Made by a program: the position numbers and the translations under genes. Shown here in pieces: positions 2,309 to 28,950 of a stretch of 30,951 bases of DNA. How positions within the stretch are numbered: the stretch's first letter is position 1; each line of letters opens with the position of its first letter. This DNA comes from a virus. The notes under the pieces were generated by a model. It was not told the DNA's origin. It worked only from the letters and a program-made list of their open reading frames with translations, and searched no databases. The stretch covers positions 1 through 30,951 of IMG/VR virus record IMGVR_UViG_3300037509_000067. One strand, written 5' to 3'.

Positions 2309-2821
2309 ATGAGCAACTCGATCATGCCACAAATCGTATACGACACGGAATTCTTGATCCAACTCAGAGCCACAACAATCCAAGCTGGGCACCACAAGAA
2401 CCTGATTAAAGCTATCGGAGAGGAGGAACTACTCAACCACCTCTCTACTATCTTCTGGGCACCCAAGGGACTACTAGGGCTGGACGTGACGTTAACCCCT
2501 GGAGTCGCCTCGCCCATAGTCCAAGCTGCCATGCAGGCGATAGGACTAAGTCAGCTCATTGGTTTCACCCCGCTATACCCTCGTAGCAATCCCTTCTCCG
2601 GGGACTGGGACTACGTGACCCGATGTGAGGCAATGTTGGATGAACTGGAATTGCGATACCTACCAGCCAAAGGGAGGGCACTAGACTTTTCTGGTGGTGA
2701 TGGCTGCTTCATTCTTGTGGGTGTGGGGATACCCGAAGCAATGCCTGTGCTATTCGACCAACTAAGTTGCATTGTGCTGCCAGTGACGGGTGTTGCAAAA
2801 CTGGTCAGCTTGGTAGACTGA
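2309..2821 (+). CDS. Hypothetical protein
   Basis: 170 aa ORF, no recognised motif. Confidence 0.6.
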   Translation: MSNSIMPQIVYDTEFLIQLRATTIQAGHHKNLIKAIGEEELLNHLSTIFWAPKGLLGLDVTLTPGVASPIVQAAMQAIGLSQLIGFTPLYPRSNPFSGDWDYVTRCEAMLDELELRYLPAKGRALDFSGGDGCFILVGVGIPEAMPVLFDQLSCIVLPVTGVAKLVSLVD

Positions 2822-2889
2822 AGATAACTGATTGTTTCAACCATCCCGCTACTCACTCCAAGGTGGCAGGTTTTTTTTACCCAACCCTC

Positions 2890-3264
2890 ATGTCAACCCC
2901 CGCCGCTAAGTTCTCACGCATCACCCGTCGTATCACCCTCTGGCTAGGCTCTCCCACTGCACTAATCCTGAATGTATCCATCGTTGCTGGCTGGGCAGTA
3001 GTCGGACTCATCAAAGGCTTTAGCGACACTCATCAACTGTTCATAAATACCTTCACGACCATCTGGACATACATGATGGTGACGGTGTTGCAGAACACGC
3101 AGAACCGAGACTCTAGGGCTATCCACATGAAGCTGAATGAGTTGCTATCCGTGAAGACTGAAGCGAGGAATGAACTGATTGCGCTTGAGGAAGCAGAGGA
3201 CGAGAAGCTGGATGCGATCGCTCAGGGCTTCGAGGAGCTGAAGAGGGACTGTGAGAGCGATTGA
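2890..3264 (+). CDS. Low-affinity iron permease family (Fet4-like) membrane protein
   Basis: GSP...W...G...GFSDTHQLFINTFTTI.T..MV..LQNTQNRD.RAIH.KLNELL signature; two hydrophobic segments. Confidence 0.85.
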   Translation: MSTPAAKFSRITRRITLWLGSPTALILNVSIVAGWAVVGLIKGFSDTHQLFINTFTTIWTYMMVTVLQNTQNRDSRAIHMKLNELLSVKTEARNELIALEEAEDEKLDAIAQGFEELKRDCESD

Positions 3265-12694: not shown

Positions 12695-13510
12695 TCAATG
12701 ATTCACTATCAACGGAATCCTGGATATCCCCTGGTCTCGAAACTCTCTCATACAACGCCGCCAGATATTCCAACCATTGTCAAACAAGAACACGATGCAG
12801 CCGCTACTTCCAGGGAAGCGACTGCGGTTAGTGTCGTTGTGGACCATAAACTCACCCCGCATTATGCCCCTTATCTGCACAGGGTCAGGGATGATGTGAA
12901 AGGCGTAGCCTTCGATGCCTTTGGTTTGGAACCGTGCCAGCTCCTCTGTTAGTATCCAGTAGTTCTTAATGTTCAACTCATCGCAACTAGGCAATGGTCC
13001 CTTCCCTTTGAGGCTCGTGCTGCTTTTGTGCTGATAACTAGGTTGCCCTGAGGTGCAGCTAAAGGAATGCGCCTCTCTTGTACCAACAAGGTCGAACGTT
13101 CCAGTAACAAGTGCGTTTTGACGCTTTGCAGGTAAGAACATGTTGAAGGTTGCCAAAGGGTCAGGCTTGCTTTGTAAAGTTACGACCTTGGTTTCAGTTT
13201 TACTAGAGGTAGGTAAAAATACTTCGACGTGAGGATCGGTGGCTGGAGGGGAGCCATACAAATACCACTCACCTGGTTCGATAGCGATCGCGCTTGTCTT
13301 TCCCTGCTGCTCACAAACTATGCGCTCTGAGCTTAGTACTACCTTGTAATGCTTCCCAGTCGGCGCAAAACTTAAAGCCTTGAGGTAAACGCCCGGTGGC
13401 AACTCCACTTTGCTGTGGGAGTCCAAGGATGCAGCGCTTTGAGGAGTGCGCTTGAGGAACGTCGGTTTAATCGTGCGGAATACAGCAGGGGTGGTGGCAG
13501 CCAAGGGCAT
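12695..13510 (-). CDS. Putative peptidoglycan enzyme with DUF2778/Tlde1-like L,D-transpeptidase-fold domain
   Basis: FMVHND...PGSSGCI His/Cys motif; N-terminal TFLK..P....L...K..L..G...H.KV...WY...HVE domain typical of cyanobacterial cell-wall enzymes. Confidence 0.65.
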   Translation of the reverse strand: MPLAATTPAVFRTIKPTFLKRTPQSAASLDSHSKVELPPGVYLKALSFAPTGKHYKVVLSSERIVCEQQGKTSAIAIEPGEWYLYGSPPATDPHVEVFLPTSSKTETKVVTLQSKPDPLATFNMFLPAKRQNALVTGTFDLVGTREAHSFSCTSGQPSYQHKSSTSLKGKGPLPSCDELNIKNYWILTEELARFQTKGIEGYAFHIIPDPVQIRGIMRGEFMVHNDTNRSRFPGSSGCIVFLFDNGWNIWRRCMREFRDQGISRIPLIVNH

Positions 13511-13687: not shown

Positions 13688-14947
13688 CTACCTGTTCAAG
13701 GGTGTCACGACCGGAAAAGATATGATTTGACACTCCAACGGCTGAAGCACGTTGGATTCTAACTTCATCGTCAGAACTTGCTCTACCAGGCTTGCGCCAA
13801 GTAGCGTAGAGGTTCCAACTCCATCAGCGTTACTTCGGGACTGCCCATCCCTAGATTTTGCCTTTAGCAAAATGTTAATAGCCGCATTCCAATCCCTTTG
13901 GAGAGTCAGACCACAAGAGCAAACGTGAGTCCTAGTGCTGAGGGATTTTTTCACAATCGCCTTACACTGACTGCATTCTTGTGAGGTGTACTGAGGTGGA
14001 ACAGCAACAGCTAATTTTCCAAACTTGGTTGCAAAATATTCAATCCACTGCCTGAATTGATACCAACCCGCATCAGCAATTGACTTAGCTAGACAGTGAT
14101 TTTTGAGCAGATTTGCAACTCTTAAGTCTTCATAGGCTATTAAGTCGTTAGACTTACAAACGTGACGCGCCAGTTTCTTGGCGTGTTCGGTACGTTGCCT
14201 ACTTACTCTTAAGTGCTTCCTAGAATACTTAGCTCTTGCCTTACGGCGACCCGATGAACCTTTTACCTTTTTATAGATGCTTCGTTGAGCGTGTTTGATG
14301 CTGGATTCAGCCTTTCTCAAGAATTTTGGGTTGGGTTCTTGATGCCCGTTTGAATCGGTGTAGAAGGATTCAATGCCAACATCAAGACCGATTTGATTAC
14401 CCGTTGGATGCTGAATATCAACACATTCAGCATCAACGGCAAACTGGCAGTAATACCCGTCAGCACGTCGCACAAGTCGAACCCGCTTGATTGACTTAAC
14501 GGGGTACTGATAGATGTCCCATTTACCCAAAAGCTTGAGTTCACCAATTCCCTTTTTGTCTGTAATGGTGATGCGTCTTTTACTTTTGTGGAGCGACCAT
14601 CCGCTAGTCTTATACTCAACAGAGCGGTTATCTTTCTGAAACTGAGGAAACCCTTTCTTCCCTGATTTTTTAGACTTGCAATTATTGTAGAACCGAGAGA
14701 TAGCAAGCCAGCCCCGTTCAGCAGCCGCTTGTACAGCCATTGAGTTGAGGTCTTTGACAAAAGCAAACTCGTTGCGTAATTCGGTCGAGTAATTATTTAA
14801 GCTAAACCGATTGATTTTGGCGTCTTTGGGTGCGTCCATCCAATATCTAATCGATTTATTTCTGATGAATTGCACGGTTCTGATAGCCTCATCAATAGCT
14901 TGATATTGCTGCGGTTTGGCTTTGATTTTATATTCGAGAACTCGCAT
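13688..14947 (-). CDS. tnpB: RNA-guided endonuclease TnpB
   Basis: RuvC-I GLDVG, RuvC-II YEDL, zinc finger CSQC/CSCG, RuvC-III RDWNAAINI. Confidence 0.96.
   Translation of the reverse strand: MRVLEYKIKAKPQQYQAIDEAIRTVQFIRNKSIRYWMDAPKDAKINRFSLNNYSTELRNEFAFVKDLNSMAVQAAAERGWLAISRFYNNCKSKKSGKKGFPQFQKDNRSVEYKTSGWSLHKSKRRITITDKKGIGELKLLGKWDIYQYPVKSIKRVRLVRRADGYYCQFAVDAECVDIQHPTGNQIGLDVGIESFYTDSNGHQEPNPKFLRKAESSIKHAQRSIYKKVKGSSGRRKARAKYSRKHLRVSRQRTEHAKKLARHVCKSNDLIAYEDLRVANLLKNHCLAKSIADAGWYQFRQWIEYFATKFGKLAVAVPPQYTSQECSQCKAIVKKSLSTRTHVCSCGLTLQRDWNAAINILLKAKSRDGQSRSNADGVGTSTLLGASLVEQVLTMKLESNVLQPLECQIISFPVVTPLNR
13727..13759 (-). other. IS right-end hairpin and 3' end of the omegaRNA scaffold
   Basis: GAAT CCAACG tgcttcagc CGTTGG AGTG TCAA; same GAAT/TCAA pair as IS608. 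Confidence 0.88.
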
Positions 14948-15006
14948 TGTGTTTCGCCTCCTTGTTGTCTATGATAGTGGTCTATAGTCCAACCGTCAAG
15001 ACCAGT

Positions 15007-15402
15007 ATGGGACAAAATTACCGTCACGCCAACACATCAATTACTTTGATTAACTATCATTTTGTTTGGATACCAAGACGCCGTAAAGCCGTACTTATTG
15101 GAGAGGTTGTTCAAAGATTCGAGGAATTACTAAGAGCAAAAGTAACCGAGCTAGATTGTCAGGTTATTGCCTTAGAAGTGATGCCTGACCATGTGCATTT
15201 ATTTCTTAACTGCCCTCCAACGGTCGCTCCATCAGACCTCATGCATCGACTTAAGGGAGCGACGGCTTACAGACTTAGAGACGAATTCCCGCACTTAAAA
15301 AAGCTCCCAAGTATGTGGACTAGGAGCTTTTTTTGTTCAACCGCTGGCAATGTCAGCAGTGAAACAATTAAGCGCTACATTGAAAATCAGAAGACCAGGT
15401 GA
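15007..15402 (+). CDS. tnpA: IS200/IS605 Y1 (HUH) transposase
   Basis: NYHFVWIPRRRK, DHVHL HUH motif, catalytic Tyr in KRYIENQ. Confidence 0.96.
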   Translation: MGQNYRHANTSITLINYHFVWIPRRRKAVLIGEVVQRFEELLRAKVTELDCQVIALEVMPDHVHLFLNCPPTVAPSDLMHRLKGATAYRLRDEFPHLKKLPSMWTRSFFCSTAGNVSSETIKRYIENQKTR

Positions 15403-19002: not shown

Positions 19003-19107
19003 GACTTCCTCCTTAAGTACCGAGTTATGACTCTATCTTATCCTTGCTAGGGAGACATAAAAAGCCCCTCTAGGTGGAGGGGAGTGTCCGAAAACACGGG
19101 ATTATAC

Positions 19108-19518
19108 TTAGCGGGTCGGTTTTGTAGCGTGAAACTCTGATTCTTTCGTTGGGTCTCCGAAAACACCGGGAAAATATAGTTCAAGCGGAAATTGATGATA
19201 GCCTCTAACTTCAATTAGCTGGATGTGCGGATAGTCGGCAAGGAAGAGCTTTTTCTTGAGTTGCCAGACTGGAGTCGGCATTCCCTTTGCTTCGACTACT
19301 ACCAACGCCCCATTTGGTAATTCACAGAGAAAATCCGCCTTGTACTTCGCTACAGTTTAACCAGAAGGAGAGTAGAGGTTGAACGGGTGTTGCAGGGAGA
19401 TGTTGGCGATCGCTCCCCTATCGTGAAGTCGCTTGAGGTCTAGGTAGGTATTCGCCTCTAACCCGGAGTCAAACCTAAAGCCGTCCACCTTAGTCCTGAT
19501 GGCGTTATACTTGGTCAA
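19108..19518 (-). pseudogene. DUF1064 family (PD-(D/E)XK-like) gene with a premature stop
   Basis: KYNAIRTKVDGFRFDS..EA..Y...LQHPF...G*TVAKYKADF...VVEAKG..TPVWQLKKKLF; TAA at 19357-19359. Confidence 0.85.
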
Positions 19519-19724
19519 TCGATTAGCTCCCAATCTGGCTCAGAGAGTTTTAGCGCCCAAGTCTCACCAGTTTGGTCGGATCGAGCCATCCATCCGGAAT
19601 CAGGGAACAGGGGGCAAATAATAGTTCCCGTATGTTCTATTTGTTCACTTTTAGGGTGGCTTAGCCCAGTCACAAAGCGAACCTTGGATTTTGGTCTAGC
19701 TTGCAAATTACGATCTTTGCTCAT
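19515..19724 (-). CDS. Hypothetical protein
   Basis: 69 aa; GGAG RBS; stop overlaps the next TTG start. Confidence 0.6.
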   Translation of the reverse strand: MSKDRNLQARPKSKVRFVTGLSHPKSEQIEHTGTIICPLFPDSGWMARSDQTGETWALKLSEPDWELID

Positions 19725-19823
19725 AATTGATTCTCCAGATAACAGACTGCCCACCACCGAGCCGCCATCAGCTGATCGTAGAGCGGGTTGAGCTTGCACA
19801 GGGGCGGGATGTGGGATAGTAGC

Positions 19824-20018
19824 TTAGCGACTACGTGTTTCATTATTAACCTCCATCCAAATGCTGCTAGCGTCAATACGGTATTGGTCTTCTGGACTTC
19901 TACCTAGCTTTGGTTTCCCTGCGTCGTCCTTGACGATAATATTGGCGCACTCACAGGCTAGCTTTGCGGGGACGTTATGAGAAACGAGGGCTTTTTGGCA
20001 GGCTTGTTTTAGACTCAT
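19824..20018 (-). CDS. Small hypothetical protein, probable paralog of 20063-20287
   Basis: LVSHNVPAKLACECANII versus LESKGIPVDKAAPAASIL; AAGGAG RBS. Confidence 0.65.
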   Translation of the reverse strand: MSLKQACQKALVSHNVPAKLACECANIIVKDDAGKPKLGRSPEDQYRIDASSIWMEVNNETRSR

Positions 20019-20062
20019 TGGCTTTCTCCTTTGGCTTGCTGAATCCTTACTTAAAGCAGCTT

Positions 20063-20287
20063 TTAACGAGCAGTTGCTTTTATGTAGATAGTCGTCAAAA
20101 TCAAAGCCAATCCAAGTCCGGCAAGAAGCCCTGTCGGAGGTGGATTGTTTAGCAAATAGTCAACCGGATGAACACTAGGTCGAGTGGTATCCCTGGTCTC
20201 TCTAGCCAGTATGCTGGCTGCTGGGGCGGCTTTATCGACTGGGATGCCTTTGGATTCTAGATGTGATTGAATTTCTCTTGCTTGCAT
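20063..20287 (-). CDS. Small protein with C-terminal TM segment
   Basis: LLAGLGLALILTTIYI. Confidence 0.65.
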   Translation of the reverse strand: MQAREIQSHLESKGIPVDKAAPAASILARETRDTTRPSVHPVDYLLNNPPPTGLLAGLGLALILTTIYIKATAR

Positions 20288-20616
20288 TTTTGTAGTCCCT
20301 TTAATTCATTAAAACCTTGTTGTAGTCGGGCTTTCCATTCAGGTGTATTGTGGCTCTTCCAGAGGGGGTTGCCTTTGTGTTTAATCCAGTTAACAGGGGA
20401 ATGGCAGAGCTTGTCGCAGGTGCCGCACACAGGATAGACGTTTTTCCCGGCTTTGTCGTTTTTCCAGAGGTACTCGGTATGGTGCGCCGTGGTAGATGGT
20501 CGAACCTTACAACAACAGCAGATACCCCCAGTTGCCCTGTGTGCCGCCTTCCGTATCTCTGCCCAGTTAGGCGGGTAGCGGACATCCCAGTTGATATGGT
20601 CGTAGTAATGACCCAT
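20257..20616 (-). CDS. HNH-like endonuclease
   Basis: YPPNW..IRK...CCCC...AHHTEY...YPVCGTC; TGATG coupling to the ATPase gene. Confidence 0.7.
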   Translation of the reverse strand: MGHYYDHINWDVRYPPNWAEIRKAAHRATGGICCCCKVRPSTTAHHTEYLWKNDKAGKNVYPVCGTCDKLCHSPVNWIKHKGNPLWKSHNTPEWKARLQQGFNELKGLQKCKQEKFNHI

Positions 20617-22055
20617 CAGCCCAGCCCCAGTCCCTTAAGAACAGCCGAAAGCTGGCTTGCGGTTAGAGTTTTGCCACTTAGCTCTTCCCATTGAGCTTTA
20701 ACCTGTTCAGGCGAGGGTAACTCATCAAGAGACTGCATCCACTCCATCATCTCTTCTTCAATCTGAGACAGGGGCTTGACAGGCTTATTCAGGACAACTG
20801 TTTCCACTTCCTTGTCTTGTGGCTCAACTTCAATCTGCTTTCTGCTATCCCGGTCATAGCCAGAGGGATTAGGCAGAACAGGCATGGGAAACCACTGGTT
20901 CAAGCCGCCGTGGAAGATAGCCCGACCAATCTCGGATTGCTGGCAAATGCCCTTAATATCATCACTGTTGAGCTTCTTGTCGGAAGGGATAAAGTCTGCT
21001 TTCTGGAGCGACTGAGATGCAGGCAGCTGCTTGATGCTGATGATGGCAATCGGGGTGAGTTGGCTTTTGGTGCCACCGTCCATCCCGGTTCCCGTGTTAT
21101 GAGCATTCTGCCCAATCCCCCAAATCGTGATACCCTCTGAATCTCCCGACGCGGCGTAGGTACTGATTTTCTCTTCCAGCCAATCAACAGCCTTCTTCCC
21201 GATACTGTTTAGTTTTTTCATGCAAGCTGTCAGCTCGTCAATCACTAACAGCTTGCGTTGCCCCTTGGCGTCGAAGGCTTCGTAATCCTCCAAACATTGT
21301 TCTAGCCATGCCCAAACCTCTTCTGCTGAGCTTCTTACCACGCCCTTGGGCAATCGATAACAGTAGTTCACTCGCCCTTTGAAGTAGCCCGTCTCCTTTA
21401 AATCATTCTTGGGGTCAACATAGAAGATAGTGGTGTCACCCCTGGCTTGGACGTGCCCCAGTGCGTTAGATACGAACAATCCCTTGCCTGAACCAGGGAC
21501 TCCCACGATCAGGGTGTTCTTCATGTCCTCTGCTAACGCTCGAACTAAGTCGGGAACCTCTTGCTCAAACGTAACAAAATCTGTGCTGGCGTTAGGACTA
21601 GTGGCGACCGGCTGTTCAACCTGTTCTGCTGTTAAATCCTGCAATGGTGGCATATTAGCCTCAACACCAACACGTCTAGCCCAGTGCGACCATTCCCACG
21701 GGTTTGACTTGTTGATAATCAGCTCAACCTTGCGGGTGGCTCCACTAACCTCAGCCGCAAGTTGATACACCTCCTCTTCTTCCTTCAACTGATACTTCAT
21801 GGAGTCCCATTGCACCTTCTCTAGTGCGTTGTCTACCTTTCGGACTTTCTCGGAAACTTTGCAAATGACTGAGTGACCAGCTAGCCCAGCCATCCCCATC
21901 GTTGTGAGCATGGCTTTAGATACTTTGTCGAGCGACCCAGCAAACAATAGGGCACTACCAAATCCAATAACAGCGCCACTCAATAGCATGGCATCGTATG
22001 CGTTGGCTATAAGTCGAGATGGCTTTAAGGCGGCTTTTTCGGTCTGGAACAGCAT
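20616..22055 (-). CDS. Membrane-anchored FtsK/HerA/coupling-protein superfamily P-loop ATPase
   Basis: Two N-terminal TMs, Walker A GVPGSGKG, FYVDPK, Walker B LLVIDE, IWGIGQ motif, small helical C-terminal domain. Confidence 0.82.
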   Translation of the reverse strand: MLFQTEKAALKPSRLIANAYDAMLLSGAVIGFGSALLFAGSLDKVSKAMLTTMGMAGLAGHSVICKVSEKVRKVDNALEKVQWDSMKYQLKEEEEVYQLAAEVSGATRKVELIINKSNPWEWSHWARRVGVEANMPPLQDLTAEQVEQPVATSPNASTDFVTFEQEVPDLVRALAEDMKNTLIVGVPGSGKGLFVSNALGHVQARGDTTIFYVDPKNDLKETGYFKGRVNYCYRLPKGVVRSSAEEVWAWLEQCLEDYEAFDAKGQRKLLVIDELTACMKKLNSIGKKAVDWLEEKISTYAASGDSEGITIWGIGQNAHNTGTGMDGGTKSQLTPIAIISIKQLPASQSLQKADFIPSDKKLNSDDIKGICQQSEIGRAIFHGGLNQWFPMPVLPNPSGYDRDSRKQIEVEPQDKEVETVVLNKPVKPLSQIEEEMMEWMQSLDELPSPEQVKAQWEELSGKTLTASQLSAVLKGLGLG

Positions 22056-22056
22056 T

Positions 22057-22335
22057 TTAGTCAGCCTCCTCGTCTAGTAGAAATAGCCCGTCATCACTTG
22101 AGGTTGCGTGCCAGCAATAGCCATTTTCTTTTGGAAACGCCAAATGAACCACATCAATCAATATTGAGAACGCATCTCCAGGGGATTCTGCGGATACGCA
22201 AACCGGACGAGTGTCCGATTCTCCATTTTTTATGGCTGATATATATCCGAAGTATTTGTATGTCATGCATTTAACAGAACTCAGGCGATCGCTCGTCACT
22301 GCCATCGAGCTGGGGGCTTGTACCCGCGATCGCAT
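22057..22335 (-). CDS. Hypothetical protein
   Basis: 92 aa in operon; start uncertain. Confidence 0.55.
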   Translation of the reverse strand: MRSRVQAPSSMAVTSDRLSSVKCMTYKYFGYISAIKNGESDTRPVCVSAESPGDAFSILIDVVHLAFPKENGYCWHATSSDDGLFLLDEEAD

Positions 22336-22343
22336 TTTTTTTA

Positions 22344-22562
22344 TTAGTCAGTGTCCCTAATGCCCTCTATCTGAAAATCGAGATCATCCCAGTGATTCCG
22401 CGCTATTTCAATCACTCGAAAAACCTCTTCTGTCCACCCTTTGTCCTTCCCTAATTCATTCGCTGTTGCTTGACAAATCCTTGATGCCACTACAGGATCG
22501 GAAATTCCGATTAGTCGTCCCTTGTAAATCTGTAGATATTCCACAATCAAATCCCAGTTCAT
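22344..22562 (-). CDS. Hypothetical protein
   Basis: 72 aa; ATGA overlap with the upstream gene. Confidence 0.65.
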   Translation of the reverse strand: MNWDLIVEYLQIYKGRLIGISDPVVASRICQATANELGKDKGWTEEVFRVIEIARNHWDDLDFQIEGIRDTD

Positions 22563-22759
22563 TTCAATACCATCCATTCCTTGAGTACCGTCTCAACACA
22601 CGCTGTAACACTTGTCCGCCTAATCACTTCTTCCGATGTAGGATGCTTGGCGACAATGCAACCCTCTTCCTCGTTCTTCACTATCTCAATACCCACACTA
22701 GAAAGCAGGCGACTTGCTACAGAAATTGTTAACCCATTCCATCCAGCCATTTTTACCAC
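22559..22759 (-). CDS. Hypothetical protein
   Basis: 66 aa, tightly packed in operon. Confidence 0.6.
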   Translation of the reverse strand: MVKMAGWNGLTISVASRLLSSVGIEIVKNEEEGCIVAKHPTSEEVIRRTSVTACVETVLKEWMVLK

Positions 22760-23025
22760 CCCACGTAAATGCCAACAAATACAAGGAAAAGTAACCCAAT
22801 TGCAACCCTAATATGTGGGGTAACAATATCAATTAAATCGCAATAATTTTCTTGCATTCTTGTCTTAGCTCTATCATCAAGAGCGTCAAGCCCTATCCAA
22901 AGAAAGCCACCCAAAATAACAATCAGGCAACCAACCCGAATCAAAGGGAAGGATGTTGCTAACTGAGAGAGCCACCAACCAGAAGCGAGTAGGGCGGCAA
23001 TTACTGAAAATTGAAAACGTGTCAT
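22753..23025 (-). CDS. Three-TM membrane protein
   Basis: Three hydrophobic segments in 90 aa. Confidence 0.7.
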   Translation of the reverse strand: MTRFQFSVIAALLASGWWLSQLATSFPLIRVGCLIVILGGFLWIGLDALDDRAKTRMQENYCDLIDIVTPHIRVAIGLLFLVFVGIYVGW

Positions 23026-23034
23026 GGTTTTTCC

Positions 23035-23481
23035 CTATAGTGCGTCAAGATGAGATTGCCTAGCATAGGCAACGTGATTGCCCTCATTACCTGACTGGAT
23101 AAGCCCTTGCTGATACCTAGAATCCAAGTGGTTGCGACTATGGCGATCCATGATCTGCTGGTACCTAGTTTCCCGTTGAGCCATGCCTTCATCCAGTTGA
23201 ATGCTAGCCTCCAAGACTTCCAGCCCTGCGTCAACCTGCTCAAGCTTCGCCTTTGCTAAGTCCTTCAAAAATTGTGCGTTCGCTTTCATTGCATCTGTTA
23301 TCTTTCTTGTGTTCATTACAGACTGAGGGGAAGCGCTGCTGGGCATTTTACCAGAGCGCCTCATCACTTTCTGTACATAACCTTGAGCCTTGAAAGTGTT
23401 CTGAATGTCCACTCCAGACGCCAGTCCTGAACCGTGAGAAATGCCACTTGAATTGAACTTAATCATTCGACCTAAAACCAT
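23035..23481 (-). CDS. Coiled-coil hypothetical protein
   Basis: 148 aa, long helical stretch; TAATG coupling. Confidence 0.7.
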   Translation of the reverse strand: MVLGRMIKFNSSGISHGSGLASGVDIQNTFKAQGYVQKVMRRSGKMPSSASPQSVMNTRKITDAMKANAQFLKDLAKAKLEQVDAGLEVLEASIQLDEGMAQRETRYQQIMDRHSRNHLDSRYQQGLIQSGNEGNHVAYARQSHLDAL

Positions 23482-23630
23482 TACCGCGCTCCTCTGCTTT
23501 GTACTTCCACTGCTACTTGCTGTCCGCTGCTATTAAGACTTGCCGTTTTTGCCATGCTTCCAGCGTTATAACCGAACATTAGCGCCCCAAGAAACATGAA
23601 CATGGCAGCTAAGTAGTCTTTATTTGGCAT
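23481..23630 (-). CDS. Small single-TM protein
   Basis: MPNKDYLAAMFMFLGALMFGY, 49 aa. Confidence 0.6.
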   Translation of the reverse strand: MPNKDYLAAMFMFLGALMFGYNAGSMAKTASLNSSGQQVAVEVQSRGAR

Positions 23631-23940
23631 GATAGATTTCTTCTGGATATTGATGAACTGCTGTAGAAATGAGCCTTGAGACAGTAAAAGTGCAGCCGGA
23701 CACAACGACTAGAACAAAGGCAATCGCTGTGCAGTGCATCATCAACTCGGAAGTGAACTTAATCTCCCGAATCTTCTGGGTTGCCGACCGCTGCTCTCTT
23801 GCCTGCGTTGCTACCTGATTGATGAGTGCCTCGGCTTCCCATTCACTCAATCCCTGAGCATCAAACTTGACCTCACCCTCTGGAGTAATACTGAATCTGA
23901 CTTTGTGGGGCGTTGCCTCCTTCACTTCGTAGTTGTCCAT
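23620..23940 (-). CDS. Single-TM protein, paralog of 23873-24181
   Basis: MDNY..KE.T...V..SI...G.V.FDAQGLS; C-terminal TM. Confidence 0.72.
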   Translation of the reverse strand: MDNYEVKEATPHKVRFSITPEGEVKFDAQGLSEWEAEALINQVATQAREQRSATQKIREIKFTSELMMHCTAIAFVLVVVSGCTFTVSRLISTAVHQYPEEIYHAK

Positions 23941-24181
23941 AAATACTTACTCCACAAACCAGAAAAAGCAGCAATTGCCTAAAGGCAATCAGTCTTATAA
24001 GCTGAGACTCCTTGTTCTGCTGTCGAACCTGGGCAGCAGCATTAATGACTTCTTCGTGTAACTTCGCTAAGTCGTAATCACTTAGCCCATTGGCGTCAAA
24101 GTGTATCGATCGTCCGTTGTTGTAAATCGATGTTTTGACTACGGGGTGAGTTCTCTCCTGTATCTCGCTGTAGCTGTCCAT
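23873..24181 (-). CDS. Single-TM protein, paralog of 23620-23940
   Basis: MDSY..QE.T...V..SI...G..I.FDANGLS; TM then YGQL tail. Confidence 0.72.
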   Translation of the reverse strand: MDSYSEIQERTHPVVKTSIYNNGRSIHFDANGLSDYDLAKLHEEVINAAAQVRQQNKESQLIRLIAFRQLLLFLVCGVSIYGQLRSEGGNAPQSQIQYYSRG

Positions 24182-24293
24182 ATGCAATAGCTCCAAGTGT
24201 TAGCGACATCAAAACTAGATAGCCAGTACCTATCCAGACAAGAGTGCTATTAGGCTTCAGCTGTGAAACTAATGCCGAATGCAGCTCCAGCAT
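24096..24293 (-). CDS. Small single-TM protein (or frameshift extension of 24250-24768)
   Basis: GAGGTGA SD 5 nt before the ATG; TM then YGQL...G.N.P.SQ tail shared with 23873-24181. Confidence 0.6.
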   Translation of the reverse strand: MLELHSALVSQLKPNSTLVWIGTGYLVLMSLTLGAIAYGQLQRDTGENSPRSQNIDLQQRTIDTL

Positions 24294-24768
24294 CGTCCTC
24301 ACCTCTTTGGCGAAAAAAGGCAGGGTTGCCTTTGTAGTCCCTCGCCTTTTCTCCTAATTTCTCCAGAAAGAGGCTGGAGTGATTTTCGACAATCTCCATT
24401 ACCTTGTCTGAATCAATCTCAGCGGCAGCATCAGAAGCCTGCCTGAAAGCGTCAACATAGTTGCCGACCTCTTCTGTAACTTGCTTCGCTAGATTGCCGA
24501 TAGGATTATCCAATTTAGGTGTTTTCGTTAATCGGTCTTCTTTTGGCTTCCTTGCAGCTGGTTTGCGCTTAGTTGCTTTACCGCTTCCATTGCTTACTGC
24601 CAAACCATTGCTAATTGGCTGAGCCTCTGGTTCAAGTTCCGCTGCGATCGCCTTTGCGTCAGCTTCTGAAATCTCCCCATCTAACCCGTACTCATTGAGC
24701 TTGGCTTCAATTGCACTATCGGGAACTGTCTTGCCTTGCTCTAACAGAATCGACTTAATTCGTTCCAT
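24250..24768 (-). CDS. Hypothetical helical protein, first gene of the operon
   Basis: 172 aa ORF. Confidence 0.75.
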   Translation of the reverse strand: MERIKSILLEQGKTVPDSAIEAKLNEYGLDGEISEADAKAIAAELEPEAQPISNGLAVSNGSGKATKRKPAARKPKEDRLTKTPKLDNPIGNLAKQVTEEVGNYVDAFRQASDAAAEIDSDKVMEIVENHSSLFLEKLGEKARDYKGNPAFFRQRGEDDAGAAFGISFTAEA

Positions 24769-25212
24769 ATATTACCCCGCGCTTACTGTATTTCAGTGAT
24801 GCACTGTGTTTACTGAAATTACTGTAGTTCAGTGACAATGCATATAACGCCGTCATTTTGTCGCGACAACAAAAATGTCACAAAGCAGAGAATGCGTGTT
24901 AAGCCGTGACACCGATCTTGCATGCTTTCAAGCTGTGACATCATGCCGAAAAACGCAGAACAATGGAACCCGTAACGTCTGGCATCGCTTACGACTCAAA
25001 GCTTTGTTGTAACAATACTTTTAATTGTTCGATTTCAGTGACGTGCCGTGACTAATGCCGCTTTAGCCAATTTGAGTATTTGTCCAAATACTCAAAACAA
25101 GAAGGGGGTTGAGCTTCGACCATTACAAAATAACGCCCAATTGGATGTCTTTAGCAAAAACGGCGCGACGATTCCACAAACAACTCCGCCCGCTAATTCT
25201 TGTATTCTGAGC

Positions 25213-25239
25213 AAAAAAAATACCCCTCGATTGAGGGGC
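25213..25239 (-). terminator. Intrinsic terminator
   Basis: GCCCCTC-AATC-GAGGGGT followed by A and a T8 tract on the minus strand. Confidence 0.75.
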
Positions 25240-25263: not shown

Positions 25264-25716
25264 TCAACTCGCAATATCAATCCACCTTTGCACCTCTGGG
25301 TGAGGGATGGGCTTGCTCACTCCAAACTGCAATTTATGCTTTTCCGCCCATCGGTAAAGAGTCCGGATAGTAACTTTTCTTCCCGTCACTTGCCTGATAA
25401 GATTCGGTAAGTCTCGCCCAGTCGCCTGAGCGTAAAAAGCCTGGTCAATCTGTTCTTGCAATTGTTGGTGAGTGTAAGGCGTCAACTTAAGCTGTTGTTT
25501 GACATGAACATATCCAATCGCTTTCCTTGGATGCGACTTTTTCAGGTACGCCAGGGTGAGTAGGTAAGTAGCTTGCTCAACTCCCACGACTCGACTCCAC
25601 TGCTTGACCTTGCAAATCCTCAGCCACTTTCGCCATGCTCTTTCGGAAAGGCAAGCTCCATAAACCTGATCAGATGCCATTTTGACCCATTCGAGGGGGT
25701 ACTCATTCTCTTCCAT
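25264..25716 (-). CDS. Putative DNA-binding protein with two HTH-like repeats
   Basis: LSERAWRKWLR and VTIRTLYRWAE. Confidence 0.6.
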   Translation of the reverse strand: MEENEYPLEWVKMASDQVYGACLSERAWRKWLRICKVKQWSRVVGVEQATYLLTLAYLKKSHPRKAIGYVHVKQQLKLTPYTHQQLQEQIDQAFYAQATGRDLPNLIRQVTGRKVTIRTLYRWAEKHKLQFGVSKPIPHPEVQRWIDIAS

Positions 25717-28108: not shown

Positions 28109-28324
28109 TTACAGTAGCGATAGCTGAATTCCCCTCAATCCGTTAGGATTACTTATTTCCATATCAGGATTCGACCTCTCACCCACTTCCCCCTCCTCTG
28201 CCACTCGCCACTGATTCGCATAGAACCGACTGCCACCCTTCGTAATGCAGTAGTCAGAGTGAAAGTGGGCAACATCGAAAGCCCATCCAGCGCAGAAATA
28301 GTGCTGCGTGATGATGATTCTCAT
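28109..28324 (-). CDS. Hypothetical protein
   Basis: 71 aa; ATGA overlap. Confidence 0.6.
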   Translation of the reverse strand: MRIIITQHYFCAGWAFDVAHFHSDYCITKGGSRFYANQWRVAEEGEVGERSNPDMEISNPNGLRGIQLSLL

Positions 28325-28950
28325 TTTGCAGTCTCCACATAAGGTCTAAACGTCAGATTAATTCGCTCTTCCACCGGCTTTGTTGTTTTACAAAGTCGAT
28401 GCACCCAATTTTCTTGGCACCCAGGAAGCATCAGAATTAAGCTGCCATGAGCCAGATCGTAAGTGACAGACTCTTGCTTAATTGTTTTGTCCTTAGGCTT
28501 GAGCTGGAATCGGCGTGTTCCCCCAAGGGAGATAGACGCGATCGCCGGTGCAACACCCATGCTCTTCTCATTGTCTGAATGCCACCCAATGTGGTCGCTA
28601 CCAGAACGGTAGTAGTTGCCGATGACTAGCTGATAACGAAAGCCTGTTCCCTCTACGTTAAATCGAATATTGTGAAGCATCGGCGTCCAAGGCTTTGCGA
28701 TCAACTCCACACTCCCAGAGTAAACATAGCGATAATCACTATCGCCCTGCATCATCTCTAGTCGTGGTAAATCGATCCATTTCCCCAGCATCCTGATTTT
28801 GTTGTGCTGCCAATCCAGTTGTTTACAATGCTCGTACAGTTGATCTGCAACAACAGCAGGCAGGAATTCTGGGTAGTACTTAACTGGGGGTTGCTCATGC
28901 ACCCAGATTACGGGCTTTTCTTGAGGAAATAGTTCTAATTGTTCAATCAT
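28321..28950 (-). CDS. alkB: AlkB-family 2OG-Fe(II) dioxygenase (ALKBH2/3-like)
   Basis: NYY...D.IGWHSD, IASISLG..R.F, HGSL..M, WVH, RINLTFR. Confidence 0.92.
   Translation of the reverse strand: MIEQLELFPQEKPVIWVHEQPPVKYYPEFLPAVVADQLYEHCKQLDWQHNKIRMLGKWIDLPRLEMMQGDSDYRYVYSGSVELIAKPWTPMLHNIRFNVEGTGFRYQLVIGNYYRSGSDHIGWHSDNEKSMGVAPAIASISLGGTRRFQLKPKDKTIKQESVTYDLAHGSLILMLPGCQENWVHRLCKTTKPVEERINLTFRPYVETAK

Follow-up and report, generated by a model that had tools for sequence, protein, structure and literature searches.

Systems that invite comparison with the locus described here are the TraB/Spd systems of Streptomyces, the TdtA translocase of Thermus thermophilus, TcpA of Clostridium perfringens, and the cyanobacterial MPF_C type IV secretion systems (T4SS). 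For the definitions of TraB/Spd, MPF_C, TdtA, and the ATPase motifs, we used excerpts of PMC4447253, PMC12857230, PMC3548315, PMC5365140, PMC10250835, and PMC11703096. According to these excerpts, the Streptomyces spd genes are small, coupled, and diverse (PMC4447253), and TraB homologues have been reported in Actinobacteria only (PMC3548315). Here, we analyzed an operon of small membrane-protein genes, an FtsK/HerA-class ATPase gene, and an HNH endonuclease-like gene, located in the first 30,951 bases (the window) of the 96,178-base virus record IMGVR_UViG_3300037509_000067, which is linear and has a completeness estimate of 89%. The operon represents a real, conserved, and undescribed module. 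The module probably has some DNA-moving role (spread, segregation, and donation taken together), and our preferred, still tentative, reading is a relaxase-free, TraB/Spd-like pump that would pass the double-stranded DNA (dsDNA) of the element to the neighboring filament cell. Neither the module, nor DNA passage between cyanobacterial filament cells, nor virion-free spread of tailed phages was found in the literature searched, which comprised mostly non-subscription papers and, among supplements, those of PMC6293099 alone; searches by term in PMC12481020, PMC8597652, and PMC12691664 did not turn up the module either.

Conservation of the operon on phages and plasmids

The window is part of a tailed phage, not of a chromosome or a plasmid. 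In the PHROGs searches, the contig yielded a large terminase at 58898-60391 (E 2e-33) and a tape measure protein (3e-41), along with a tail protein and a weak portal match (7e-6). The HIP1 octamer, whose abundance is a mark of cyanobacterial hosts, occurred in 77 copies versus 1.5 expected, which indicates a cyanobacterial host. A previous reading of the window, made by a model from the sequence without database searches (the sequence-only reading), had suggested a possibly filamentous cyanobacterium; the cyanobacterial part stood, whereas a filamentous habit was seen only for the named carriers given below and not for the host of this phage. Three matches of 35-43 nt (run X1) were considered as CRISPR spacers and dropped, as their flanks were unlike CRISPR repeats. 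The single run that contains most of the window bears the label biocrust metagenome and is a possible source; runs X2 and X3 appear to form a single data set, and none of the runs listed was of RNA.

The sequence-only reading had described about 14 tightly coupled minus-strand genes, and this was confirmed. The 14 open reading frames (ORFs) occupy 24768 down to 19824, with distances of -86 to +44 nt between neighbors, in the order o172, o65, o102, o106, o49, o148, o90, o66, o77, o92, ATPase, HNH, o74, and o64 (gene coordinates refer to the window, minus strand). The unit is flanked by two terminator-like hairpins, at 25222-25239 and 19065-19082. The interval 19824-24768 does hold the 14 ORFs, but the module extends beyond it, as o150 (25264-25716) also belongs. 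This HTH-like (helix-turn-helix) basic protein (+11) is a conserved member, present in 12/13 phage loci, and a candidate regulator or DNA adaptor; its hidden Markov model (HMM) matched CL131 gp121 (7e-72) and NPUN_RS35300 (2e-23), and its HTH matches were weak only. In the window, o150 is set apart by the hairpin at 25222-25239, whereas in L054-L059 and pNPUN02 it opens the operon.

A Kyte-Doolittle peak of at least 1.5 was taken as a transmembrane (TM) call, and o65, o102, o106, o90 (two peaks), and o74 passed it. Of the at least six small TM proteins proposed from the sequence, five were therefore clear and the sixth, o49, was borderline, being below the threshold with homologues that score one TM. 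Ten of the 14 ORFs and o150 were compared with related phages in 16 pairs. The proportion of nonsynonymous differences (pN, 0.09-0.49) was lower than that of synonymous differences (pS, 0.40-0.86) in all 16, with dN/dS of 0.07-0.40 where unsaturated; thus, the ORFs are real genes. NCBIfam gave no match for any of 16 operon-related proteins.

Five scans fetched 61 loci. Thirteen of them are viral loci of this operon type (L005 and L054-L065), which amount to about five to six independent lineages with several near-copies. Twelve of the 13 keep a five-gene core (o150, o172, o106, o148, and o90) plus the ATPase, and the thirteenth ends at a contig edge. The cultured Aphanizomenon phage vB_AphaS-CL131 (CL131; MG209611) has the counterparts gp121, 113, 112, 111, 109, and 108, found with HMMs from the phage loci, or by position and alignment for the o90 type; HMMs also recovered module genes on Nostoc punctiforme pNPUN02 (NPUN_RS35300-RS35270) and on a Halotia plasmid. 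The module is carried by pNPUN01 and pNPUN02 of N. punctiforme, and a related operon lies on pCC7120alpha of Nostoc PCC 7120. In CL131 (gp108-gp113/gp121) and pNPUN02, the gene set, the gene order, and the N- and C-terminal domains of the ATPase are as in the window, whereas both ATPases bear another core with about 20-22% identity to that of the window. CL131 also differs in having an extra 3-TM gene and no HNH, in contrast to the HNH gene of the window. All module genes of CL131 and pNPUN02 are annotated as hypothetical. In the remaining loci, mostly Nostocales contigs and plasmids, the core type of the window ends a parallel operon, whose 140-190-aa gene and multi-TM gene have no detectable homology to the small genes of the window. 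In the neighbor scans given below, the homologues did not always sit in T4SS/relaxase loci, and the operon is conserved.

The other core genes differ in how far their matches reach. The first, o172 (24250-24768), encodes a soluble acidic protein whose C-terminal half is heptad-rich, with a heptad score above 300/300 shuffles; it matched NPUN_RS35295 (6e-25) and CL131 gp113 (6e-10). A single C-terminal TM characterizes o106 (23620-23940), with E values of 1e-3 to 2e-3 for CL131 gp112 and NPUN_RS35290 and 5e-5 for Halotia. In 13/13 phage loci we found o148 (23035-23481), which has a glycine-rich N-terminus followed by a long helix and matched CL131 gp111 (2e-24) and NPUN_RS35285 (3e-13); its nearest Atlas models are FliJ/YscO-like. 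This is the protein called coiled-coil in the sequence-only reading: it is long-helical, but a crude heptad test was non-significant, with 39/300 shuffles as high. Homologues of o148 are split or truncated in L056:8761-9206 and L058:9061-9273, by decay or sequencing error. The core gene immediately upstream of the ATPase is o90 (22753-23025), a 2-3 TM protein, which is tied to the CL131/pNPUN02 type by position and alignment (about 20% identity) and had no HMM match.

The complete phages G002 and G004 each have their own terminase and portal, and they share 14 and 17 of 124 proteins with the window phage. Seven and six of these few shared proteins are module genes, which argues that the module moves as a cassette.

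The ATPase core is exchangeable. Residues 1-140, the core, and the tail of the window protein have 85%, 24%, and 47% identity to P0023, and 68%, 22%, and 64% to P0045; at the DNA level, identity to L054 is confined to codons 1-150 and those from 434 on. In a quick tree, which has long branches, leaves out L034 (no Walker A match), and was used for the two-clade split only, the two cores formed two clades on a very long joining branch. On the N-terminus tree (n=32), core type needs nine changes, at least four of them forced by well-supported branches; this is no fewer than with shuffled labels (9.9). G002 and G004 have 73/119 proteins in common and different ATPase cores. Repeated recombination through the conserved flanks would be the simplest reading of these swaps, and such repeated exchange would place partner and substrate specificity outside the core. 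Regardless of function, it is unusual for two cores with 22-24% identity to be swapped repeatedly within a single protein frame. The HNH gene as a homing nuclease driving the swap is not favored, as it occurs with both cores; HNH identity follows the operon backbone (86, 78, 62, and 62%).

The ATPase, its nuclease partner, and candidate cis elements

The ATPase gene (20616-22055; 479 aa) encodes an N-terminal TM and helical stalk (residues 1-135), an FtsK/HerA-class core (about 165-405), and an acidic three-helix HTH-like C-terminal domain (about 425-479). The AlphaFold model has a mean pLDDT of 75. The protein had been read as a two-TM P-loop ATPase; one TM is clear (peak at residue 22), whereas a second hydrophobic helix falls short of the threshold in the window protein and scores as TM in the Nostoc and Halotia plasmid homologues.

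For the core, the VIA comparison gave Z scores of 15.0 for VirB4, 14.4 for HerA, 14.0 for EccC, 14.0 for Rho, 13.6 for FtsK, and 13.5 for TcpA, with root-mean-square deviations of 3.0-4.5 over 175-220 residues; STIV2 B204 reached Z 13.0. Foldseek returned FtsK (3e-5) and TcpA (9e-5), and the Atlas neighbors, which come from Cyanobacteriota and tailed phages, included FtsK_SpoIIIE and DUF87 clusters. The FtsK/HerA type proposed from the sequence was borne out at the superfamily level by the modeled core, which has an FtsK/HerA-class fold, with Rho, KaiC, and RecA-like folds scoring nearly as high. The FtsK_SpoIIIE Pfam family did not match the ATPase, and a sequence search of the PDB returned P-loop noise only. 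The family spans 665 clusters at 50% identity. Its motifs are Walker A GVPGSGKG at 185, Walker B VIDE at 271, and GIGQN at 313; among 199 aligned of 212 unique relatives, K191 is kept in 194, E274 in 197, and Q316 in 184. For the C-terminal domain, there were weak HTH hints (CENP-B HTH, Z 4.8; Pfam HTH_Tnp_Tc5, E 0.006). A LOTUS/OST-HTH identity was set aside, as it appeared in weak Foldseek rows only and Pfam and PDB profiles gave no support.

The HNH endonuclease-like gene (20257-20616; 119 aa) is, as originally proposed, coupled to the ATPase; the two overlap at TGATG, and the product matches PHROG HNH families (E 1.6e-5). An HNH gene directly follows the ATPase in 7/13 phage loci. In five of the other six, the ATPase has a fused PD-(D/E)XK-like C-terminal extension, and the sixth ends at a contig edge. 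The extension matches PDDEXK_9 at E 1.6-4.2e-4, which falls short of the curated cut-off; two more nuclease families rank behind it. CL131 gp108 carries the same C-terminal extension, which resembles the PD-(D/E)XK-like domain of L060-L065, and the two plasmid copies examined have neither HNH nor nuclease extension beside the ATPase. From these sequence patterns, a nuclease appears to have been recruited twice independently in the phages, which would suggest DNA as the substrate of the ATPase.

Two candidate cis elements accompany the operon. The first is a non-coding element of about 60 nt (22276-22341, minus strand) with HIP1 or HIP1-like octamers at both ends, a candidate cis-site or regulatory RNA. 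Its identity in five related phages is 88-92%, above that of the surrounding genes, and indels break the frame; a 22-mer of it occurred in five contigs of the viral collection, all with this operon. As a structured RNA it was rejected, since it folded no better than shuffles (z -0.45 to -1.4) and had no Rfam match. At its place, L005 and L059 have a terminator-like hairpin, which makes control of ATPase dosage as plausible as a loading site. The second is the leader (24769-25221, minus strand), a candidate operator with three CACTGAA copies (TTCAGTGA at 24792-25034 on the plus strand), the only repeats of this kind seen near the window ATPase. A similar motif, TTCAGTG...ACAGT, precedes the operon in L005 and L059. 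Direct 8-mer arrays (4-6 copies) lie at or just 3' of the ATPase stop in the Nostocales loci L019, L021, L032, L034, L035, and L042.

Possible functions of the module

The 62 window ORFs scanned yielded no relaxase or VirB family, in agreement with the sequence-only reading, and neither did 53 further contig proteins. Pfam families of relaxases, VirB, and coupling proteins matched 0/322 neighbor proteins (150 + 118 + 54) within 10 kb on each side, in a scan of all but small singletons (<200 aa) and 42 small cluster representatives and with possibly poor cover of MPF_C; record annotations showed no such neighbors either. PF00589, PF07508, PF03432, and PF13614 were absent in 5/5 phage records, three of them complete. 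An integrase cluster was present in 17/61 loci, and primase/helicase replication genes and CyRepA1-type genes were frequent neighbors in cellular loci. A complete, non-mobilizable Fischerella plasmid of 24.5 kb has a related ATPase operon, and plasmids typed as non-mobilizable made up 8/24 and 7/15 of the carriers.

The distinct plasmid records matched by the two cores were all (37/37) from filamentous genera, compared with a control replication protein that had at least 50 of its 221 records in unicellular genera. In GTDB, 31 of 32 loci were named Nostocales. Among 401 sampled genomes of the phylum, six matched (5.7-8.5 Mb; three candidates scored per genome), and this lifestyle test was not used.

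For the proposed dsDNA pump, the ATPase ring would be anchored via its N-terminal helices and complexed with o90, o106-type proteins, and o148/o172. DNA would be chosen by o150 or by the C-terminal three-helix domain, with the 60-nt element and the leader repeats as possible sites. The nuclease added by the phages may cut replicating phage DNA, giving ends loadable by the pump, and the core would be an interchangeable engine with specificity held in the flanks. The cell-to-cell transfer machine of the sequence-only reading agrees with the conserved operon, the fold, and the lack of T4SS/relaxase neighbors, but several TraB hallmarks are missing or altered. The fuller scenario, in which tailed phages took a plasmid DNA pump, added a nuclease at least twice, and push their genomes along the filament virion-free with two swapped divergent motors, is in our view rather unlikely.

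Several observations count against the pump. The filament link is confounded by phylogeny, most carriers being Nostocales, and the ATPase had no match on plasmids of the filamentous Planktothrix and Pseudanabaena (18 control records). Carrier plasmids were typed as conjugative in 8/24 and 8/15 cases, and a T4SS may act in trans. No peptidoglycan hydrolase was recognized in the operon by Pfam and NCBIfam scans, and no array of at least four exact 8-mers in 300 nt was found from 3.5 kb before to 2.5 kb after the window ATPase, nor, by the same check, near the ATPases of L005 and L054-L059. The top fold matches are tied, with protein-secretion ATPases among them. Walker A ends in GKG (157) or GKD (33) in 190/199 relatives and in GKS in one. 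Position 11 before the sensor Q (D305), which we take to be the usual FtsK arginine-finger position, is D in 156/199 and R in at most three; R378 (194/199) and R402 (193/199) are nearly invariant and may substitute for the usual finger. The R/Q motif of FtsK-class ATPases was used as described in the excerpts of PMC11703096. The C-terminal domain has three helices and no wing, and its net charge is -1 to -8 in nearly all homologues (-4 in the window protein). Going by the modeled fold, the ATPase would work like an FtsK-class motor, but it is not a textbook member. Finally, CL131, a carrier of the module, is described as virulent, and its infection is presented in the excerpts of PMC7466765 as unsynchronised lysis in filaments, with cell-to-cell spread unmentioned there.

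Among the alternatives, segregation or membrane tethering within one lineage fares best and is still unlikely. The pump would then clear or partition a plasmid or a non-integrated phage genome at the closing septum, as FtsK/SpoIIIE does, which accords with the FtsK-like fold and with a weak actin-like gene (E 6e-5) in the related operons of 14 loci. No tyrosine integrase, serine recombinase, or ParA was seen in 5/5 phage records, so another maintenance route is possibly needed. However, four to six membrane or helical partners and a nuclease would be superfluous for this task, carrier plasmids can have their own ParA, and the restriction to filamentous genera would be left unexplained.

Transport of protein, or membrane remodeling, appears improbable. 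Here, an EccC/VirB4-like ATPase would act on proteins instead of DNA, either by exporting or inserting o148 and o172 or by remodeling septal junctions. VirB4 and EccC do tie for the best fold match, o148 is FliJ/YscO-like (by shape only), and the deviant Walker A, the lack of the usual arginine finger, the neutral core, and the acidic C-terminal domain would suit it. In contrast, the phages tie a nuclease to the ATPase in two independent ways, the core members include the HTH-like basic o150, and WXG100 or other secretion families were unmatched in Pfam and NCBIfam.

Donation of DNA between separate filaments, by TdtA-like transjugation or TraB-like mating, seems quite improbable. DNA would be pushed out for a competent neighbor, and the HerA-like fold and the integrases adjoining related operons are in keeping with this, as is the TdtA operon, in which, according to the excerpts of PMC5365140, an integrative element encodes a translocase together with nucleases. 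However, TdtA lacks this set of membrane partners in the same excerpts, the two plasmid copies examined are without nuclease, and donation would serve unicellular hosts too.

Superinfection exclusion or conflict between elements, in which the module would block or destroy rival phage or plasmid DNA at the membrane, is very unlikely. Small membrane proteins, a nuclease, and two-type core swapping (nine changes on the N-terminal tree) could be expected of such a system, but gene order is strongly conserved across phages and plasmids, and the PADLOC matches of the ATPase were weak (mad8 4e-6, HerA 6e-4), with the other 14 proteins unmatched. The defence module offered as an option by the sequence-only reading has no support beyond these matches and no cognate partner genes. 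Its other option, membrane-linked packaging of the genome into a virion or membrane particle, can be rejected: although FtsK/HerA-class ATPases package some viral genomes (excerpts of PMC11703096), STIV2 B204 matched at Z 13.0, and o172 had one weak PHROG match (E 1.2e-4) to a virion protein, a terminase, a portal, and a tape measure are all encoded on the contig itself, G002 and G004 likewise have their own terminase and portal, the operon is on plasmids too, and ORF108-121 of CL131 are absent from the 23 virion proteins listed in Table S5 of PMC6293099.

If the proposed pump is real, an entire filament could fall to a single infection. Models of phage dynamics in blooms and soil crusts would then change, and Nostocales would have a relaxase-free route of DNA delivery. 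The question is directly testable, as the module is present in CL131, which is in culture, and on plasmids of model strains.

Accessory genes and comparison with known systems

The accessory ORFs of the operon are less widely shared. The single-TM protein o65 (24096-24293) has an alternative GTG start at 24302. Another single-TM protein, o102 (23873-24181), is a tandem paralogue of o106, with about 38% identity and a 241-nt repeat unit. The small hydrophobic o49 (23481-23630) has a positional homologue in L056-L058, and the soluble o66 (22559-22759) is also found in L005 and L059. For o77 (22344-22577) and most of o92 (22057-22335), both ORF calls, there was no homologue among the 61 loci; the first codons of o92 overlap the 60-nt element, and its true start is probably later. 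Downstream of the HNH gene, o74 (20063-20287) is a single-TM protein by hydrophobicity, and o64 (19824-20018) belongs to a small-protein family recurring near these ATPases (L007, L008, L012, L034, L042, L061, L063-65, and CL131 gp117); homologues of both are partial or family-level only. A small ORF at 19721-19843 has 70% identity over 27 aa to an L055 protein matching Mo-nitro_C (PF06967, E 3e-16). The DUF1064 nuclease-like gene at 19108-19533 is split into ORFs of 58 and 65 aa and is intact (143 aa) in L054/L055; after it, the predicted hairpin at 19065-19082 (minus strand) is the likely 3' end of the transcript.

Elsewhere in the window, an IS200/IS605 element (TnpA + TnpB) lies at 13688-15402. 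The best match of the IS605 DNA was only about 65%, to Nostoc plasmids; the window TnpB is 86% identical to a TnpB of phage G004, and two further TnpB genes are at contig positions 35742-36959 and 91656-92843. The window also contains a low-affinity iron permease domain at 2767-3264 on the plus strand (PF04120, E 4e-35; family also in L056-L058), an AlkB-like 2OG-Fe(II) oxygenase at 28321-28950 on the minus strand (L054/L055 have one too), and, outside the operon, a Tlde1-like domain protein at 12695-13510 on the minus strand (E 1.5e-4). The latter is 43-52% identical to part of the G002 and G003 endolysins and is a possible wall-modifying or lysis gene.

In the rest of the contig, we found a CHASE3 histidine kinase at 93453-94766 (L004:16453-17766), with homologues in 3/3 complete related phages, a receiver-like protein at 74147-74494, and, in the gene after the portal, a fused 2H-phosphoesterase/RNA ligase-like domain at 62767-64161 (L002:15767-17161). 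Contig-wide, GGCC occurred 13 times versus 285 expected and GGCGCC not at all, and G002-G004 avoid them likewise. A related phage encodes a Csx3-domain protein (L057:13343-14224, minus strand; PF09620, E 2e-23), a possible ring nuclease against type III CRISPR.

Among the known systems, TcpA works in a T4SS with a relaxase, whereas neither was found beside the window-type ATPases. The TcpA of C. perfringens pCW3 (PDB 6o1w/6o1x) has, like the protein described here, an FtsK-like fold and an N-terminal membrane anchor (Z 13.5; E 9e-5). The cyanobacterial MPF_C T4SS (PMC3548315) occurs in the same hosts and sometimes on the same plasmids, and VirB4 is among the tied top fold matches of our ATPase; unlike MPF_C, the module had no match to VirB, VirD4, or relaxase families up to 10 kb on either side and also occurs on non-mobilizable plasmids and phages. 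As a phage carrier, CL131 is described in the excerpts of PMC6293099 as virulent in culture and without integrase, with ORF108-113 hypothetical. TdtA/NurA of the T. thermophilus element ICETh1, according to the excerpts of PMC5365140, resembles the module in combining a HerA/FtsK-class translocase with a nuclease on a mobile element without relaxase; in the same excerpts, TdtA has no detected DNA-binding domain and needs recipient competence. No partner genes common to TdtA and the module were found.

Unlike TraB, the ATPase described here has no FtsK_SpoIIIE Pfam match and no clt-like array, its C-terminal domain is acidic and wingless, and its Walker A and finger position are altered; it also has a nuclease as partner, belongs to a diderm host, and is carried by a tailed phage. 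The Pfam/NCBIfam scans detected no homologues of Spd proteins, so the likeness is one of layout only. In that layout, the module shares with the Streptomyces TraB/clt/Spd/TraR systems (pSVH1, pIJ101, and actinomycete integrative and conjugative elements, AICEs; PMC4447253, PMC12857230) a single membrane-anchored FtsK-class ATPase without relaxase, coupled small membrane and helical genes, an HTH-like gene, filamentous hosts, and integrase and replication genes as neighbors.

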